Shown here: in pieces, positions 4,794-51,650 of the stretch
How positions within the stretch are numbered: the stretch's first letter is position 1
How the letters are laid out: every line of letters begins with the position of its first letter
DNA from: Verrucomicrobiia bacterium
GTDB lineage: Bacteria > Verrucomicrobiota > Verrucomicrobiia > Limisphaerales > UBA1319
Direction of reading: 5' to 3'
DNA: 64,000 bases
Assembly: GCA_963664225.1 (NCBI GenBank)
Contig: OY760937.1
Location: 5,344,001 to 5,408,000, forward strand
Made by a program: the position numbers and the translations under genes
Notes under the pieces: generated by a model
Database searches by the model: none
What the model saw: only the letters and a program-made list of their open reading frames with translations
What the model was told of the DNA's origin: nothing

Positions 4794-5780
4794 CTAGCGG
4801 ACGGGCGTGATTTTGCCTGATTTGGCCGATTCGACCGCCGCTTCGAGCACGCGCACGGAATCGAATCCAGCCCAGCCGTCGGCGCGAGGGGCCTGGCGTG
4901 TCTTTGTGGATTCAATGAAGGCGCGCAGTTCTGCAAGCAGCGGTTCTTCGGGTGGGCATTCGATTTGTTGGACGGGGCCTTCGACACCCTGGAAGTCCGT
5001 GCCTTTTTGCACGAAGTGATTGGGGTAGGCCTTGATCTTGTATTGGGCGACGTTGAAATCGCAGACGGCGCTGAGCTGGGATCCGATGACGGTAACCTCG
5101 CGGAATTTGCCAGGCAACCAGTAATTGGTTTCGACAGTGGCCCAGGCAACGCCTTTCGGGGTGTCGTATTCCATGGAAATGGCGGAGGCGTCCTCCATGC
5201 CACGCGCCAGAAAATCGTGCATGACGGCGCTGACGCGGGCGGGGGTGCCGCCCATGAAATAGTTGAACAGGTCGATGAAATGGATGGCATCGGCGAAGGC
5301 AATGCCGCTGTCGTTGCGGGGGCGTTTGAATCCGCTGAAATTGCCGCGCATCATGTTGATGCGGCCGAATTGACCGGATTGGATGTTGTCGCGCAGCCAT
5401 TGGGATGCCGGGTCGAAGCGGAAGATGTGGCCCACCTGAAGGATGCGGGCTTTTTCGGCGGCGAGTTCGGCCAGTTTGCGGGCTTCGGAAGAGATCAGGG
5501 TGATGGGTTTTTCCACAAACACATCCTTGCCGGCGAGCATCAAATCACGGACCAGCTCAAAGTGGGTTTGCGCTGGGGTGACGACGACGGCGGCATCCAC
5601 AACGCCAAAGAAATCCCTGGGGTCGGTGGACATGTGGTCGGCGGCGATGCCAAGCTTGCGCGCGGCATCGAGTTGCTGAGAGCGCACATCGACCACGTAG
5701 AGATCCACGGGCAAATTGTGCAATACACGCAGGTGGTTGGCCCCCCAGCGTCCTAAACCAAATAACAAAATCTTCATCAC
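4794..5780 (-). CDS. Gfo/Idh/MocA family oxidoreductase
   Basis: GLGRWG dinucleotide-binding motif, DVFVEKP, VGHIFRF, DAIHFID. Confidence 0.92.
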   Translation of the reverse strand: MMKILLFGLGRWGANHLRVLHNLPVDLYVVDVRSQQLDAARKLGIAADHMSTDPRDFFGVVDAAVVVTPAQTHFELVRDLMLAGKDVFVEKPITLISSEARKLAELAAEKARILQVGHIFRFDPASQWLRDNIQSGQFGRINMMRGNFSGFKRPRNDSGIAFADAIHFIDLFNYFMGGTPARVSAVMHDFLARGMEDASAISMEYDTPKGVAWATVETNYWLPGKFREVTVIGSQLSAVCDFNVAQYKIKAYPNHFVQKGTDFQGVEGPVQQIECPPEEPLLAELRAFIESTKTRQAPRADGWAGFDSVRVLEAAVESAKSGKITPVR

Positions 5781-5937
5781 TAGGTGGCGTAAGCATTGTA
5801 AAACAGGCCACCACCGGCAAGCTTAAATTGAGGGTGTTTACCGTCATGAAATTCCGCATTTGGATTATTGACAAAGGATTTTCAACCTGCCAATGGCCGG
5901 AGGGCGCAAACAAGGGCAGGGGAGTGGAGATGGTTTT

Positions 5938-6102
5938 AACCCGAAATCCGAAATAGGAACGGCCCATCTGACGCAATCATTTGGCCATCCATGGTTTGAA
6001 ACCGGCTGCGGAGTATTGATTTAATACACCCTCGCCGATTGCAAATCATGGCTGACTCAAAGCATTGCACCATCTGGACCCTTCTTATTTCGGATTTCGG
6101 GT
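5938..6102. repeat. ~165-bp palindromic (MITE/REP-like) element whose right terminus is interrupted by the group II intron
   Basis: Perfect 18-bp terminal IR AACCCGAAATCCGAAATA (5938-5955) vs TATTTCGGATTTCGGGT|T (6086-6102 + 8078); imperfect complementarity continues over ~70-bp arms (5938-6006 / 6034-6102). Confidence 0.8.
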
Positions 6103-8077
6103 GTGCGCCAGTGAAATTGGTAGCCTCGTGGGTGAAAGTCCCGCCGGTCGAATTAGACGGTTCACGACCGAAATGCAGCGTCCGGGACGAGGCCGTGAGG
6201 CCGAACCACAAGCGGGACGCTGAAAGAACTGTCGGGTCGTAACGAAAGTAAACCTCATCAAATGAGCTCCGAAACCGAAATAACCGGTAAGCCGAGCCGC
6301 TACCCGAACGGCGAAGGCAGAAACGCGGCGTCATCAAATCGTCAAATGGGCGCTGTTGATTCCGGCGGAGTCAGCGAGGGCGACACGACAGGAAGGGAAA
6401 CCAAGGTAAGCTGGGAGATCTCTGGAGGCGGGGCGATAAAGCCTCAACCGCCGGTGCAAGGAGGAACACCCTCCGAGGCCGCACGGGCAGCCAGAGAAGT
6501 CGGAGTCTTCCATAGTAGCGAAGAAGCTGGGGCGACCAAAACCCCGGCGGAGCCAAGGGAAGGCACTTGGATCGAAGCGAATCAAAACAGCGAGGGACAG
6601 GGAGATGGCCTTGAGGGAGTGGAAACACTTTTTCAACGGATAACAACCCCGATAAAAGTTCAAAAGCTGCAGCGAGCGCTATATTGCAAAGCCAAGGCTG
6701 AGCCGAAGTATCGGTTTTACAGCCTCTACGGAGAACTGCTGCGGAAGGACGTGCTGGAAACGGCAATGGCCTCCGTGGCGCACAACAATGGCGCGGCTGG
6801 GATCGACGGGCAGACATGCGACGTCTATCTTGCCAGCGACGAAGCCTGGGACCAATGGCGGAACCAACTGCTGGAGGAGTTACGCACGAAGAAGTATCGG
6901 CCAAGCCCGGTGAAGCGTGTGTATATACCAAAAGGAGACGGGAAGCTGCGACCCCTGGGCATCCCGACAGTGAAAGACCGGGTGGTGCAGACAGCGGTGG
7001 TGATTGTATTGCTGCCGATTCTGGAAGCCGATAGTCATCCGAACAGTTACGCCTATCATCCCAAACGCAATGCCCACCAAGCAATGGAGGCGATCAAGAA
7101 GGCTACGCTGACAGGACGCGTCGAAGTTATAGACGCGGACTTAAGCGGGTATTTTGACAGCATTCCCCACAGGCGTTTGTTGCGCATAGTGGCCAAGCGG
7201 GTCAGCGATGGAACAATTCTCAAGCTGATCGCAGGATGGCTGCGCGCGCCCGTGAATGAACCGCAAAGCGACACAGGGAAAGGCGGGACAAAGGGGGGGC
7301 AAGGTCAGAATCGACGGGGGACTCCGCAAGGCGGGGTTGTATCGCCGATTTTAGCCAATGCATACCTCAACCAGTTGGATTGGGAAGTCAACGAACGCTG
7401 CGAACTCAAACCCGTGATGGTGAGATACGCGGATGATTTCGTGATACTCGGACAGCCGGGGCAGGGACGGGAACTGATGGAACGACTGGAACGATGGCTG
7501 AAGCAACGCGAGTTAGTGCTCAACGAGAAGAAGACCCGCTTGGTGGACCTCCGCCAGGATGGCATCAAATTCTTGGGATTCGCGCTAACAATGCGACAGG
7601 GGAAGGGGAAATGGAAATATCCGCATGTGGAACCCCATCCCAAGAGCCAGAAGAAGTTTCGAGACGGGATTCGGGAGAAACTCAACCGAAGCACGCTATG
7701 GCGTGATATCGGAGAGGTGATTCCCGAGCTCAACAAGAAACTCAAAGGTTGGAAGGGTTACTTTCACTACGGGAACAGCACCAAGGTGATGGGCCAGATG
7801 AACGAATACGTCAGCAGCAAGTTACAACGATGGTTGTGGCGCAAACACGGATGTAGTCGGGCGCAATGGTCCACATACCCCAAGGAGGATCTCTATGAGC
7901 GTTATGGTTTATACCAAATGCCGGAATATGCGGCATGGAAACGATGACGTCGAAGCGATGCAACGTATGATCCCCGGAGAGCCGGATGCGGGAAAACCGC
8001 CTGTCCGGTTCGATGAGGGGCGAAATGCGACGGTCATTGGCCACGGCCATTCAATCCGTCCATTTCGCCTACTCTAC
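6103..8077 (+). mobile_element. Group II intron (ribozyme + RT/maturase ORF)
   Basis: 5' GTGCG at 6103; domain V GAGCCGGATGCGGGAAAACCGCCTGTCCGGTTC (7979-8011, AGC triad); domain VI ending ...CCTACTCTAC at 8077; EBS1 ACCCGAA (6302-6308) pairs with 6096-6102, EBS2 CCGAAATAA (6275-6283) pairs with 6085-6093. Confidence 0.95.
6619..7947 (+). CDS. ltrA: Group II intron reverse transcriptase/maturase, no endonuclease domain (start uncertain; frame open from 6262)
   Basis: GAAGIDG, RPLGIPTVKDRVVQ, DADLSGYFDSIPH, GTPQGGVVSPILAN, RYADDF, X domain GWKGYF; GTG at 6619 preceded by a purine-rich SD-like tract. Confidence 0.93.
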   Translation: METLFQRITTPIKVQKLQRALYCKAKAEPKYRFYSLYGELLRKDVLETAMASVAHNNGAAGIDGQTCDVYLASDEAWDQWRNQLLEELRTKKYRPSPVKRVYIPKGDGKLRPLGIPTVKDRVVQTAVVIVLLPILEADSHPNSYAYHPKRNAHQAMEAIKKATLTGRVEVIDADLSGYFDSIPHRRLLRIVAKRVSDGTILKLIAGWLRAPVNEPQSDTGKGGTKGGQGQNRRGTPQGGVVSPILANAYLNQLDWEVNERCELKPVMVRYADDFVILGQPGQGRELMERLERWLKQRELVLNEKKTRLVDLRQDGIKFLGFALTMRQGKGKWKYPHVEPHPKSQKKFRDGIREKLNRSTLWRDIGEVIPELNKKLKGWKGYFHYGNSTKVMGQMNEYVSSKLQRWLWRKHGCSRAQWSTYPKEDLYERYGLYQMPEYAAWKR

Positions 8078-8147
8078 TTAATCGTTGAGTTCGCCGGATT
8101 ACGCTTGAACAGGCCATTGCGTTGAGCAAGTATCCAAGCCCGGTAAG

Positions 8148-10721
8148 ATGCCATCCAGCACCACCCAATATACTGTCCCGGAAGCGGACCTGCTTAAGCA
8201 ATTGGGCAGCTCCGGAAATGGCCTGTCTTCGGAAACGGCGCTTGAGCGTTTGCGAGAGACGGGATCAAATACCGTGGCCGCTGGGGAACGCCGGGGAGTC
8301 TTGCGTGATCTGTTAGTGCGGTGTCGCAATCCCCTGGTCATTCAATTGCTCATCATCGCCACTGTTTCCTACCTGATGTCCGATTTGCGCTCCACAGTGG
8401 TTGTGGGGGGCATGGTGTTTCTGAGTGTATTTCTTTCTTATATTCAGGAAACCCGCTCATCGCGCGCCGTTGAGAAACTGCAAAAACTCGTCAAGACCAC
8501 AGTGACAGTTTTGCGCGATGGGAAGGAAGTCGATGTGCCGTTGGAGGATATTGTGCCCGGCGATGTGGTGGTTCTGGCTGCGGGGAGCCTTATTCCGGCG
8601 GATTTGCGGATTTTGTCGGCCAAGGACTTCTTCGTCACACAATCGGCGCTGACGGGTGAATCGATGCCGGTGGAGAAAAACGCGGAGATTAACCCGGTTG
8701 CCGGACGTGGAGCATTCGACCTGAGCAACGCCTGTTTCATGGGATGCAACGTGTTAAGCGGGACAGCACATGGTGTGGTGCTGGCCACCGGAGCACGGAC
8801 GTATTTTGGAGCTCTGGCTCAGAAACTTTTGGCTCGCAGAGCGCCGACGAGCTTTGATAGCGGGGTTCGGGATTTCACCTGGTTGATGATCCGTTTCATG
8901 GTGGTGATGGTGTCGGCGACGTTTTTGATCGTGGGGCTGACAAAAGGCAATTGGTCGGAGGCGCTGCTCTTCGCGTTGTCGGTTGCAGTGGGGCTCACGC
9001 CGGAGATGCTGCCGATGATCATCACGGTTTGCCTCTCCAAGGGGGCGATGCAGATGGCGCGCAAGAAGGTGATCGTGAAGCACCTGCACGCCATCCAGAA
9101 TTTTGGCGCGATGGATGTGCTCTGCACGGACAAGACGGGCACGCTGACGCAGGATCATGTGGTGCTGGAGCGCTATGTGGATGTGGCCAACCGGACGAGC
9201 GAGGATGTGCTGCGCTACGCCTACATGAACAGCTTTTACCAGACCGGTTTGCGCAATTTACTGGATAGGGCCATTCTGGCTCACAAGGAGTTGGATGTGG
9301 AGCGTAATTGTCGCAAAGTGGATGAAATTCCATTCGACTTCAAGCGGCGACGCATGTCGGTGGTGATCGATTATGAGGATCGCCATGTGCTGATCTGCAA
9401 AGGGGCGGTGGAGGAGGTGGCGGGAGTCTGTGAGAATTACCAGGTGGACGACGACATCAACCCGCTGATTCAGTTGATTCGGGACGATTTGATGGATGAA
9501 TACCGAAGCCTCAGTGCGGAGGGGTATCGTGTTCTGGCCATTGCCTACCGGGAATTTGATCGGGGCAAACAGAGTTTCAATGTGGCGGACGAGGCGGGTT
9601 TAACGCTGCTGGGATACATCGCTTTTTTCGATCCGCCCAAGGATACCTCAGCCAGGGCGATCGAGGGGCTTACGCGCTCGGGAGTAAAGGTGAAGATTTT
9701 AACCGGTGACAATGAATTAGTGACGCGCAAGGTTTGCCACGATGTGGCCATGCCGATCAGCAAAATTGTGACCGGACCGCAGTTGGCGGCCATGGGTGAG
9801 GAACAATTTGCGAAAGAGGTGGACGAAGCCAATGTGCTGGCCCGTTTGTCGCCGGATCAGAAGGAGAAAGTCATTCAGACGCTCCGAGCCCGGGGGCATG
9901 TGGTCGGGTTCATGGGGGATGGGATCAACGACGTGCTGGCGATGAAGGCGGCGGATGTGGCGATTTCCGTGGATACGGCTGTGGATGTGGCGAAGGAATC
10001 CGCCGACATTATTCTGCTGGAAAAGAGCCTGCTGGTGCTGGAGGAAGGGATTATTGAGGGGCGGAAGGTGTTTGGCAATATTCTCAAGTATATCAAGATG
10101 GGCGCGAGTTCGAACTTCGGGAATATGTTCAGCGTGGTGGGAGGGGCTTATTTTCTGCCGTTTTTGCCGATGGCCCCAATCCAGGTGTTGGTGAACAACC
10201 TGCTTTACGACGTGTCCCAGGTCGGCATTCCGCTGGATAATGTGGATGAGGAATATCTCGCCAAGCCGAGACAGTGGAATATCAAGAGCATCCGCAACTT
10301 CATGGTATTCATCGGGCCGATCAGCTCCATATTCGATTACGCGACCTTCTTTCTGATGCTGTATTTTTTCAAATGCGCGGCGTTTTCGCAGGCCGGTCCG
10401 GTGGACAAGGCCTATTACGAAAGCCTGTTTCACACGGGGTGGTTTGTGGAATCGCTGCTGACGCAGACGCTGATTGTGCATATCATCCGCACGCAGCGGA
10501 TACCATTCATTCAGAGCCGGCCGAGCAAGCCGATGCTTTTTGGCACGCTTTTGGTGATGGCCATTGGGGTGTGGCTGCCTTTTTCACCGCTGGCGCGGTT
10601 TTTGGGTTTGACGCCTCTGCCCGGAGTGTTTTTTGTCTGGCTTGCGGGTTTTCTCGTCTCTTATTGTGTGATTACACATTGTGTGAAGATGTGGTTTACA
10701 CGTCGGTTTGGGATGGATTGA
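8148..10721 (+). CDS. mgtA: Magnesium-translocating P-type ATPase
   Basis: TGES, VAVGLTPEMLP, CTDKTGTLT, TGDN, GDGIND, SSNFGNMFS, NNLLYD, FHTGWFVESLLTQ (P3B-type motifs). Confidence 0.93.
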   Translation: MPSSTTQYTVPEADLLKQLGSSGNGLSSETALERLRETGSNTVAAGERRGVLRDLLVRCRNPLVIQLLIIATVSYLMSDLRSTVVVGGMVFLSVFLSYIQETRSSRAVEKLQKLVKTTVTVLRDGKEVDVPLEDIVPGDVVVLAAGSLIPADLRILSAKDFFVTQSALTGESMPVEKNAEINPVAGRGAFDLSNACFMGCNVLSGTAHGVVLATGARTYFGALAQKLLARRAPTSFDSGVRDFTWLMIRFMVVMVSATFLIVGLTKGNWSEALLFALSVAVGLTPEMLPMIITVCLSKGAMQMARKKVIVKHLHAIQNFGAMDVLCTDKTGTLTQDHVVLERYVDVANRTSEDVLRYAYMNSFYQTGLRNLLDRAILAHKELDVERNCRKVDEIPFDFKRRRMSVVIDYEDRHVLICKGAVEEVAGVCENYQVDDDINPLIQLIRDDLMDEYRSLSAEGYRVLAIAYREFDRGKQSFNVADEAGLTLLGYIAFFDPPKDTSARAIEGLTRSGVKVKILTGDNELVTRKVCHDVAMPISKIVTGPQLAAMGEEQFAKEVDEANVLARLSPDQKEKVIQTLRARGHVVGFMGDGINDVLAMKAADVAISVDTAVDVAKESADIILLEKSLLVLEEGIIEGRKVFGNILKYIKMGASSNFGNMFSVVGGAYFLPFLPMAPIQVLVNNLLYDVSQVGIPLDNVDEEYLAKPRQWNIKSIRNFMVFIGPISSIFDYATFFLMLYFFKCAAFSQAGPVDKAYYESLFHTGWFVESLLTQTLIVHIIRTQRIPFIQSRPSKPMLFGTLLVMAIGVWLPFSPLARFLGLTPLPGVFFVWLAGFLVSYCVITHCVKMWFTRRFGMD

Positions 10722-36773: not shown

Positions 36774-36850
36774 CGGGGCGTAGCGTAGCTTGGTAGCGCG
36801 TCTGAATGGGGTTCAGAAGGTCGTGAGTTCAAATCTCACCGCCCCGACCA
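36774..36850 (+). tRNA. tRNA-Pro (anticodon GGG)
   Basis: 77 nt cloverleaf: acceptor CGGGGCG/CGCCCCG, anticodon arm TCTGA-ATGGGGT-TCAGA, T-loop GTTCAAATC, encoded CCA. Confidence 0.97.
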
Positions 36851-51136: not shown

Positions 51137-51591
51137 AGATTGTTATTCATGCTTATGGCTTGTTCGCGTGAGTTGTAAGTGTTCGAAGCGCGAAAGTCGA
51201 TGAAAGTCGTCAACGAGCTGATCAATGTGTTCCAAGTCTGGGATCGGCCCCCGCGAGCCGTCAACGTGCTGATTGCGAGTCCGATCCAGTCGTTTAAAAT
51301 ATCCGCGACCAATTCCATCGATCATAGAGATGTAGACATATTTATAAATATTTAATTGGCATGCATTTACATAACAGACTGGCAAAGTGATCGCATGTAA
51401 TTAAATGAACCCCGGTTTAGTCGGGAGGTGCAATGAATTGGTGTCCAAACTTCTCCTCGGTGAGATATTTTGGATCAATTGTGCTGTCCATCCGGTGTCG
51501 GGCATCTGCCACTCCAACGCCCTTGCGAACAGGATGCGACGGACGGGGACGTGTTTGATTTTCGCCTCAAAGTGGGATACTGGCGTGTAAC

Positions 51592-51650
51592 CGCGTCTGA
51601 ATGGGGTTCAGAAGGTCGTGAGTTCAAATCTCACCGCCCCGACCACTTAA
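51592..51650 (+). repeat. Displaced 3' fragment of tRNA-Pro (att site, right island boundary)
   Basis: Exact copy of 36797-36855; lacks the 5' acceptor strand and D-loop so is not a functional tRNA. Confidence 0.92.

Follow-up and report, generated by a model that had tools for sequence, protein, structure and literature searches.

A group II intron at the ends of IS1380-family transposons and miniature elements in a Verrucomicrobiia genome

The closest described counterpart of the intron reported here is RmInt2 of S. meliloti GR4, which is described as a class D group II intron without an endonuclease domain that is present in identical copies and uses both inverted repeats of the insertion sequence (IS) ISRm17 as targets, and for RmInt1 and RmInt2, both lacking the endonuclease domain, a bias towards the lagging-strand template is reported as shown experimentally (PMC4615759, PMC5894124). 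The present analysis concerns a window of 64,000 nt from a Verrucomicrobiia bacterium (GenBank assembly GCA_963664225.1, contig OY760937.1, positions 5,344,001 to 5,408,000), in which a group II intron of 1975 nt (window positions 6103-8077, plus strand) lies 1 nt beyond the right end of a 162-bp MITE (miniature inverted-repeat transposable element). Very probably this is a recently arrived and still active, endonuclease-less, IIB-like intron that retrohomes by RNA-DNA pairing into the ends of IS1380-type transposons and of the MITEs related to them. The presence of a ribozyme, of a reverse transcriptase (RT)/maturase and of a pairing between exon-binding site 1 (EBS1) and intron-binding site 1 (IBS1) argues for a mobile group II intron, and 19 identical copies at cognate sites suggest splicing and retrohoming.

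The intron, its copies and its transposon hosts

Regarding copy number, the census was made by BLAST in the window's own closed genome (5.78 Mb, one contig) and revealed 19 copies of the intron, 100% identical over 1975 nt, of which 13 are at MITE ends (either end), four at the ends of a related 1532-bp IS and two beside solo end remnants, which are 15-20 nt long and have no element behind them; 13 of the 19 full-length MITEs and four of the five IS copies are occupied. Every copy lies between bases 1 and 2 of the target site duplication (TSD), 1 nt outside the transposon end, and in every occupied copy the intron divides the duplication 1+4. Only removal of the intron makes the duplication whole again, which shows that the transposon was there first and did not bring the intron with it. 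In the window the right copy of the duplication consists of position 6102 together with positions 8078-8081. An earlier, sequence-only reading of this stretch had placed the insertion 1 nt inside the end of the repeat; the transposon ends at CGGG (6101), so that the intron is in fact 1 nt outside it, in the 5-bp duplication. The intron copies are identical while the MITE copies are 92-96% alike (they differ by 4-8%), and the burst of the intron is thus recent relative to the MITE.

The multiplicity is not an assembly artefact, since in sequencing run X2 the contig of the intron has a depth of 462, compared with 25-29 in the unique flanks, which corresponds to about 17-18 copies. In the metagenome run X6 the intron contig differs at 7 of 1911 positions and the contig of a flanking gene at 52 of 567, a contrast that hints, if weakly, at horizontal transfer of the intron. 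At genome positions 1677346, 2330644, 5162225 and 5605284, four further stretches of about 120 nt resemble the intron's RT region at 76% identity; they are probably part of another, different group II intron or RT family of this genome.

The features of the locus, in window positions, are the following.

5935-5939, no strand: left copy of the TSD of the MITE, TTTAA, recognised from the identical 5-bp flanks after removal of the intron
5938-5956, minus: empty second target at the left end of the MITE, with IBS2' CTATTTCGG, IBS1' TTCGGGT and T at +1, as read from the sequence; on the leading-strand template
5940-6101, no strand: MITE, 162 bp, CCCGAAATCCGAAATA...TATTTCGGATTTCGGG, without an open reading frame (ORF) of its own and with arms that form a long imperfect palindrome; 19 full-length copies, IS-like termini
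6085-6093, plus: IBS2 TTATTTCGG, 9/9 pairs with EBS2, from sequence complementarity
6096-6102, plus: IBS1 TTCGGGT, 7/7 pairs with EBS1, identical at 19/19 copies; the right TSD copy begins with its final base, 6102
6103-8077, plus: complete group II intron, 1975 nt, with matches to Rfam RF02005 and RF00029; 19 copies, 100% identical
6275-6283, plus: EBS2 CCGAAATAA, in an unpaired stretch of domain I according to the Rfam structure line
6302-6308, plus: EBS1 ACCCGAA, in a hairpin loop of domain I on a GCCG/CGGC stem, from the Rfam structure line and co-variation in homologues
6619-7947, plus: RT/maturase ORF in domain IV, with a YADD motif; the frame is open from 6262 and the GTG at 6619 is the proposed start
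7977-8077, plus: domains V and VI, Rfam RF00029, 49.3 bits (gathering score 40)
8078-8081, plus: remainder of the right TSD copy, TTAA, from reconstitution of the TSD; 8078 (T) is IBS3, the +1 position, which is T in 19/19 copies

The inverted-repeat arms of the MITE (5939-5983 and 6058-6102) are 45 nt long and 80% complementary, and the genome contains 19 full-length copies (92-100% identity), three copies interrupted by other insertions and a few fragments. The related IS of 1532 bp is present in five copies, has termini CCCGAACTCCGA... that are closely related to the ends of the MITE and encodes a transposase of 473 aa, which belongs to the IS1380 family (NCBIfam NF033539, 227 bits against a cut-off of 180; Pfam DDE_Tnp_1_4). 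Members of the IS1380 family have terminal inverted repeats starting with CC and generate target duplications of 4-5 bp; both traits agree with what is seen here, where the elements have ends CCCG...CGGG and a TSD of 5 bp in 20 of 21 elements and of 4 bp in one. After in silico removal of the intron the 5-bp flanks are identical in 20 of the 21 complete elements (TTTAA in 12, TTAAA in seven and TTTAT in one). The 162-bp element has its termini and the TTNAA duplication in common with the 1532-bp IS and is therefore regarded as a MITE that may be mobilised by the IS transposase. The palindromic, multicopy character of the repeat had been proposed from the window and is borne out by the 19 full-length and three interrupted copies, while its identity is now refined to an IS1380-family MITE and the full-length IS is found to be hit as well.

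An alternative assignment of the element, with a 3-bp TNA duplication and ends ACCCG...CGGGT as in the IS5/IS1031 type, was ruled out by the TTGAG and TTTAT flanks and by the match of the transposase to IS1380; the copies with TSD TTGAG and TTTAT place the start of the element at CCCG. Three MITE copies are split at a central TTTAA/TTAAA (near 828086, near 2984733-2988242 and at 264641-266500 of the genome), two of them by the 1532-bp IS1380-family element, each time with an intron at one of its ends, and one by another element, which is about 1.86 kb long and has inverted repeats of its own; this makes the MITE centre look like an insertion hotspot.

Regarding the ribozyme, GTGCG at position 6103 opens the intron and CTAC at 8077 closes it, in agreement with the GUGYG...AY boundaries of group II introns, and a candidate branch A is located 7 nt before its 3' end. 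The group-II-D1D4-6 family of Rfam (RF02005) matches at 6135-6380 with 54.9 bits (E 1e-12, gathering score 49), and domain V has an AGC triad and a 5-nt GAAAA loop in the Rfam alignment. The predicted junction of the ligated exons is ...GGATTTCGGGT joined to TTAATCG. The ORF matches Pfam RVT_1 (E 1.8e-34) and GIIM (E 1e-13) only, as well as the group II RT/maturase family TIGR04416 of NCBIfam (357 bits against a cut-off of 300); the Pfam search detected no HNH or endonuclease domain, and the GIIM match stops 25 residues before the stop codon, which leaves no DNA-binding or endonuclease domain.

The intron structure is IIB-like, and the 5-nt loop of domain V points to an IIE/IIF-like type, such a loop being described as a peculiarity of IIE/IIF introns (PMC3753933). 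In a structure-database search the reverse transcriptases of IIC, IIB and IIA introns were about equally distant from that of this intron, and in a tblastn search of plasmids its best matches, at 38-42% identity, were to unclassified ltrA genes. The definition of class C (IIC) does not apply, since EBS2 is present (6-9 of 9 pairs), IBS1 forms 7 pairs and ends without a partner arm are invaded too. The sequence-only reading, which cited the AGC triad of domain V and EBS2, was right to set the intron apart from class C, and its further claims that the RT is without an endonuclease domain, that the intron starts at 6103 and that EBS1 (6302-6308) and EBS2 (6275-6283) together pair with 16 exon bases all hold in coordinates, complementarity and domain content (Pfam RVT_1 and GIIM only).

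The MITE and the intron are located in a divergent intergenic region (5781-8147), upstream of and co-oriented with an ORF of 857 aa (8148-10721), which reads by eye as a P-type ATPase. If the promoter of this ORF lies upstream of the MITE, the leader of the gene must be spliced. Elsewhere in the window a complete tRNA (36774-36847, 63 bits) has a weak second tRNA match (51581-51642, 29.8 bits) 14.7 kb downstream of it, both with the same 3' part over about 48 nt; a tRNA 3' end duplicated in this way usually marks the two flanks of an integrated element.

Target sequence and strand preference

All 19 copies follow ...CGGA[T/G]TTCGGGT and are followed by T. IBS1 pairs at 7/7 positions in 19/19 copies, and IBS2 at 9/9 positions in eight copies, 8/9 in six, 7/9 in four and 6/9 in one. 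The genome contains 244 additional TTCGGGT+T sites, all of them empty; when TTCGGGT+T sites are grouped by the quality of the second pairing, 0 of 209 are occupied at five or fewer IBS2 matches and 19 of 54 at six or more, which indicates that IBS1 and IBS3 are insufficient and that homing depends on the region pairing with EBS2 or on something that overlaps this region. EBS2 is described as dispensable for self-splicing in IIE/IIF introns and has been suggested to serve mobility and not splicing in related introns (PMC3753933); the need for the EBS2-pairing region in homing fits this suggestion. Through the transposon's preference for TTNAA, the +1 base (IBS3, T throughout) and the final base of IBS1 come from its duplication, and since TTNAA is nearly palindromic both ends of an element usually qualify as targets.

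Along the chromosome the copies are oriented +++++------++++++++, and the probability that six minus copies are contiguous on the circle by chance is 7e-4. The orientation switches between 2.19 and 2.99 Mb and again between 0.95 and 1.66 Mb. The dnaA gene is located at 2,990,590-2,991,069, GC skew changes from positive to about zero near 1.3 Mb, and the share of coding sequence on the plus strand is mostly <0.5 from 1.2 to 3.0 Mb and mostly >0.5 elsewhere; the switch points coincide with dnaA (2.99 Mb) and with the change in GC skew and coding strand near 1.2-1.4 Mb. For the scoring of strands, dnaA, GC skew and gene-strand bias gave a putative origin at about 2.99 Mb and a putative terminus, which was set to about 1.3 Mb. 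Scored in this way, 18 of the 19 copies are on the lagging-strand template, and the 52 CGGA[T/G]TTCGGGT+T sites divide into 18 occupied and 9 empty on the lagging-strand template against 1 occupied and 24 empty on the leading-strand template (Fisher p = 1.7e-6). No element is occupied at both ends, as is expected from a lagging-strand bias.

These counts bear on several expectations raised from the window. Homing by sequence into the repeat is what the 19/19 identical copies at this target indicate, and the count of occupied and empty repeat copies that had been proposed as a check comes, when made by site, to 19 and 33 among the 52 sites. The suggestion that an intron of this kind would need replication-fork targets fits the orientation of the copies (18/19 on the putative lagging-strand template). 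The left arm of the MITE, put forward as a second target, does offer one (IBS1 7/7, IBS2 8/9), yet of the two ends it is just the one on the lagging-strand template that is filled in practice, and no element is doubly occupied.

As a further observation on the chromosome, G is in excess on the plus strand between about 3.6 Mb and, by way of position 0, about 1.3 Mb, while the skew is close to zero over the interval 1.3-3.6 Mb, and the cumulative skew never closes. This atypical skew, together with dnaA at 2.99 Mb, implies either very unequal replichores (about 4.1 and 1.7 Mb) or past rearrangements.

Relatives, mechanism and rival explanations

Introns related to this one are present at four loci in other genomes; their RTs are 76-78% identical to the RT here, and over the first 508 bases their nucleotide sequences are 83-87% identical. 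The EBS1 loop differs among them yet matches the 5' exon of its own locus in each of the three that include a 5' exon (TTCAGGT in L001, TTCAGGA in L003 and ATCCGTGG in L004), all four have T at +1, and in an ORF-less derivative in genome G034 EBS1 likewise matches its own exon, TTACGGC; this co-variation of EBS1 and exon in L001, L003, L004 and G034 supports the assignment of EBS1. The derivative (locus L084, G034:C102:13087-13781, minus strand) has 695 nt, is 71% identical over domains I-III and has domains V and VI following almost directly. L001 and L003 are single-copy in their own genomes, and no inverted repeat was found in the available 5' exon of either (42 nt and 486 nt, respectively). 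By contrast, the 5' end of the L004 intron is present at 16 places in its genome, G041, and 16/16 follow ...ATCCGTGNNATCCGTGG, the arm of a palindromic core within a MITE-like repeat that has 44 matches and is used in both orientations. This repeat (loci L105-L112) is about 135 bp long, with terminal repeats CACTACAGCGACACTT.../...AAGTGTCGCTGTAGTG and flanks of 4 bp (TTAA and TTAG, for example), and 10-nt CACGGATGA subrepeats make up its inner palindrome. The assembly of G041 is fragmented, so that strand bias is not readable in it. A search of 40 further genomes from this order, among them one from the same genus and many that are incomplete, revealed neither the MITE (0 of 40) nor a close copy of the intron, with partial or distant matches to the intron in 11. 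The sequence-only reading had envisaged an intron lineage that homes into a multicopy palindromic repeat; as a statement about the lineage this has partial support. The copies in L001, L003 and G034 are in unrelated sequences with different EBS, an outcome that the reading itself had named as refuting, while the L004 intron of G041, retargeted to another palindromic repeat, speaks in its favour. The high-copy members are thus those whose EBS happen to match symmetric multicopy repeats, which does not hold for all members.

What was seen directly are the anatomy, the pairings, the census, the split duplications and the orientation of the copies, and these can be joined in one mechanism, in which the steps of reverse splicing and priming are those that we infer, as we do the origin and terminus. 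EBS2 (up to 9 pairs), EBS1 (7 pairs) and the T at +1 would recognise a composite site made up of the last bases of the terminal inverted repeat and the TT that opens the 5-bp duplication TTNAA. Every transposon insertion would create two potential homing sites, one per strand and mostly in intergenic DNA, and only the end on the lagging-strand template would be filled.

The intron always adjoins an element, and IS1380-family members such as ISEcp1 mobilise adjacent DNA via one-ended transposition, so that the intron might be thought of as passive cargo of a MITE- or IS-plus-intron unit moved by the transposase. This is the least probable of the explanations considered and is barely tenable, because it is the element by itself that has the 5-bp duplication at its flanks, with the intron dividing this duplication 1+4, and the flanks match in 20 of 21 elements only without the intron; moreover, the intron is found at either MITE end, at IS ends and at solo ends, the carrier MITEs differ by 4-8% while the introns are identical, and carriage would not give an orientation bias linked to replication. 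Almost as improbable is a brake that benefits the host, whereby insertion of the intron would inactivate the transposon end and halt the spread of the element, as proposed for RmInt1 on ISRm2011-2. The idea is stated for RmInt1 and its relatives (PMC5894124) and would accord with an intron at 13/19 full-length MITEs and 4/5 IS copies, yet the intron lies outside the inverted repeat and the transposase gene and leaves the element intact, and reduced transposition finds no support here.

Guidance by structure, comparable to that of IIC introns, would require that the ribonucleoprotein recognises the MITE hairpin in single-stranded DNA and inserts at its 3' base, with pairing of minor importance. 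Both high-copy members do lie directly 3' of a long palindrome arm, that of the MITE here and the ...ATCCGTGG arm in G041 (16/16), and IIC introns are described as inserting after terminator and attC stem-loops (PMC4424553). This explanation is nevertheless improbable: four of the five IS copies are occupied although their ends are 1.5 kb apart, two solo remnants without a partner arm are occupied, IBS1 forms 7 pairs and EBS2 up to 9, unlike in IIC introns, the single-copy L001 and L003 have no palindrome in 42 nt and 486 nt of 5' exon, and a hairpin would pair and hide the IBS bases. Somewhat less remote, though still unlikely, is a mixed targeting by sequence and structure, in which the lineage is specialised for the arms of multicopy palindromic transposon relics and extrusion of a hairpin on the lagging-strand template may help to position the site or to present it; such help could be the meaning of the location of two members, unrelated in their EBS1, each directly 3' of a long palindrome arm. 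If this were true, the targeting mode would be one between classical IIB homing and the stem-loop recognition of IIC introns, and the intron, if indeed it tracks each new transposon insertion and leaves the transposon undamaged, would be a harmless hyperparasite.

Against homing by RNA-DNA pairing onto the lagging-strand template, which we prefer, several observations have to be set. One copy (genome position 2986270, plus strand) is misplaced with respect to dnaA by about 4 kb, so near to the origin that its side is uncertain, and nine well-matched sites on the lagging-strand template are empty. The origin and terminus used in the scoring are themselves deduced, in a genome whose GC skew is atypical, being positive over about 3.5 Mb and near zero elsewhere. 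The role of EBS2 is drawn from the statistics of the targets, and an EBS2-IBS2 pairing sought by eye in L001, L003 and L004 was convincing in none of them. Among the contigs of four sequencing runs over window positions 5400-8700 none spanned an empty or spliced junction at this locus, as contigs break at repeats; the same contig table lists three short joints (side 20-28). Finally, a scan of the MITE (5940-6101) with the sigma-70 consensus, which may not be that of the host, detected no outward promoter.

Comparison with known systems

The 19 copies form an exceptionally clear natural case of the spread of an endonuclease-less group II intron. The same target is present on both strands of each transposon copy, so that the choice of end acts as an internal control for strand preference. 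Of the lagging-oriented sites 18 of 27 are filled, of the leading-oriented ones 1 of 25; this supports the replication-fork model of RmInt1 and RmInt2 in an unrelated bacterium, and intron orientation could mark the direction of replication in a genome where GC skew is hard to read. The 19 occupied and 33 empty natural sites expose the recognition rules over 16-18 nt and are raw material for retargeting. In a literature search, with most subscription journals outside its scope, no publication was found that deals with the homing of introns into IS1380 elements or the ends of MITEs, and the available sections of PMC4853749 describe no intron homing into MITE ends.

The IIC introns resemble the present intron in that they have no endonuclease, are intergenic and insert just 3' of an inverted repeat (PMC4424553, PMC7923331), but they are described as being without EBS2, with an IBS1 of 3-4 pairs and with recognition of a stem-loop, whereas here IBS1 forms 7 pairs, IBS2 forms as many as 9, and partnerless ends are invaded too. 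RmInt1 on ISRm2011-2 (IS630 family) is likewise described as endonuclease-less, as specialised on a multicopy IS and as homing at the replication fork onto the lagging-strand template (PMC5894124). It differs in having a single site, in that its insertion is described there as blocking the spread of ISRm2011-2 and in that the account in PMC5894124, as far as it treats this intron, describes no paired inverted-repeat sites; here there are two symmetric sites outside the element, which remains intact. A homologue in sequence is the L004 intron of G041, which has the same ribozyme and protein (78% RT and about 83% nucleotide identity), is multicopy and follows the arm of a multicopy palindrome; its EBS1, CCACGGAT, and its repeat are unrelated to those here, and its site is the arm of an inner palindrome and not a transposon terminus with its duplication.

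Regarding strategy, the nearest parallel is RmInt2 on ISRm17 (Martinez-Rodriguez et al. 2014), which according to the accounts available has no endonuclease and is present in copies that are all identical, located at IS inverted repeats with two sites on opposite strands per element, and which has a lagging-template bias, relaxed pairing of IBS2 and T/A at +1 (PMC4615759, PMC5894124). Unlike in that system, the host here belongs to the IS1380 family and the targets are mostly a non-autonomous MITE of 162 bp; the site straddles the transposon end and the duplication, while RmInt2 is described as sitting 'within the inverted repeats'; 19 copies are present as against the seven described; the 5-nt loop of domain V points to an IIE/IIF-like intron, while RmInt2 is assigned to class D; and strand bias, reported as measured by assay for RmInt2, is inferred here from orientation in the genome. 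Thus, the homing strategy is already published for RmInt2 and ISRm17 and is not a new principle; what is new here is the IS1380 family as host, a MITE as the main target, a site that straddles the element end and the duplication, a near-complete natural strand bias, and a relative that is retargeted to another palindromic repeat.

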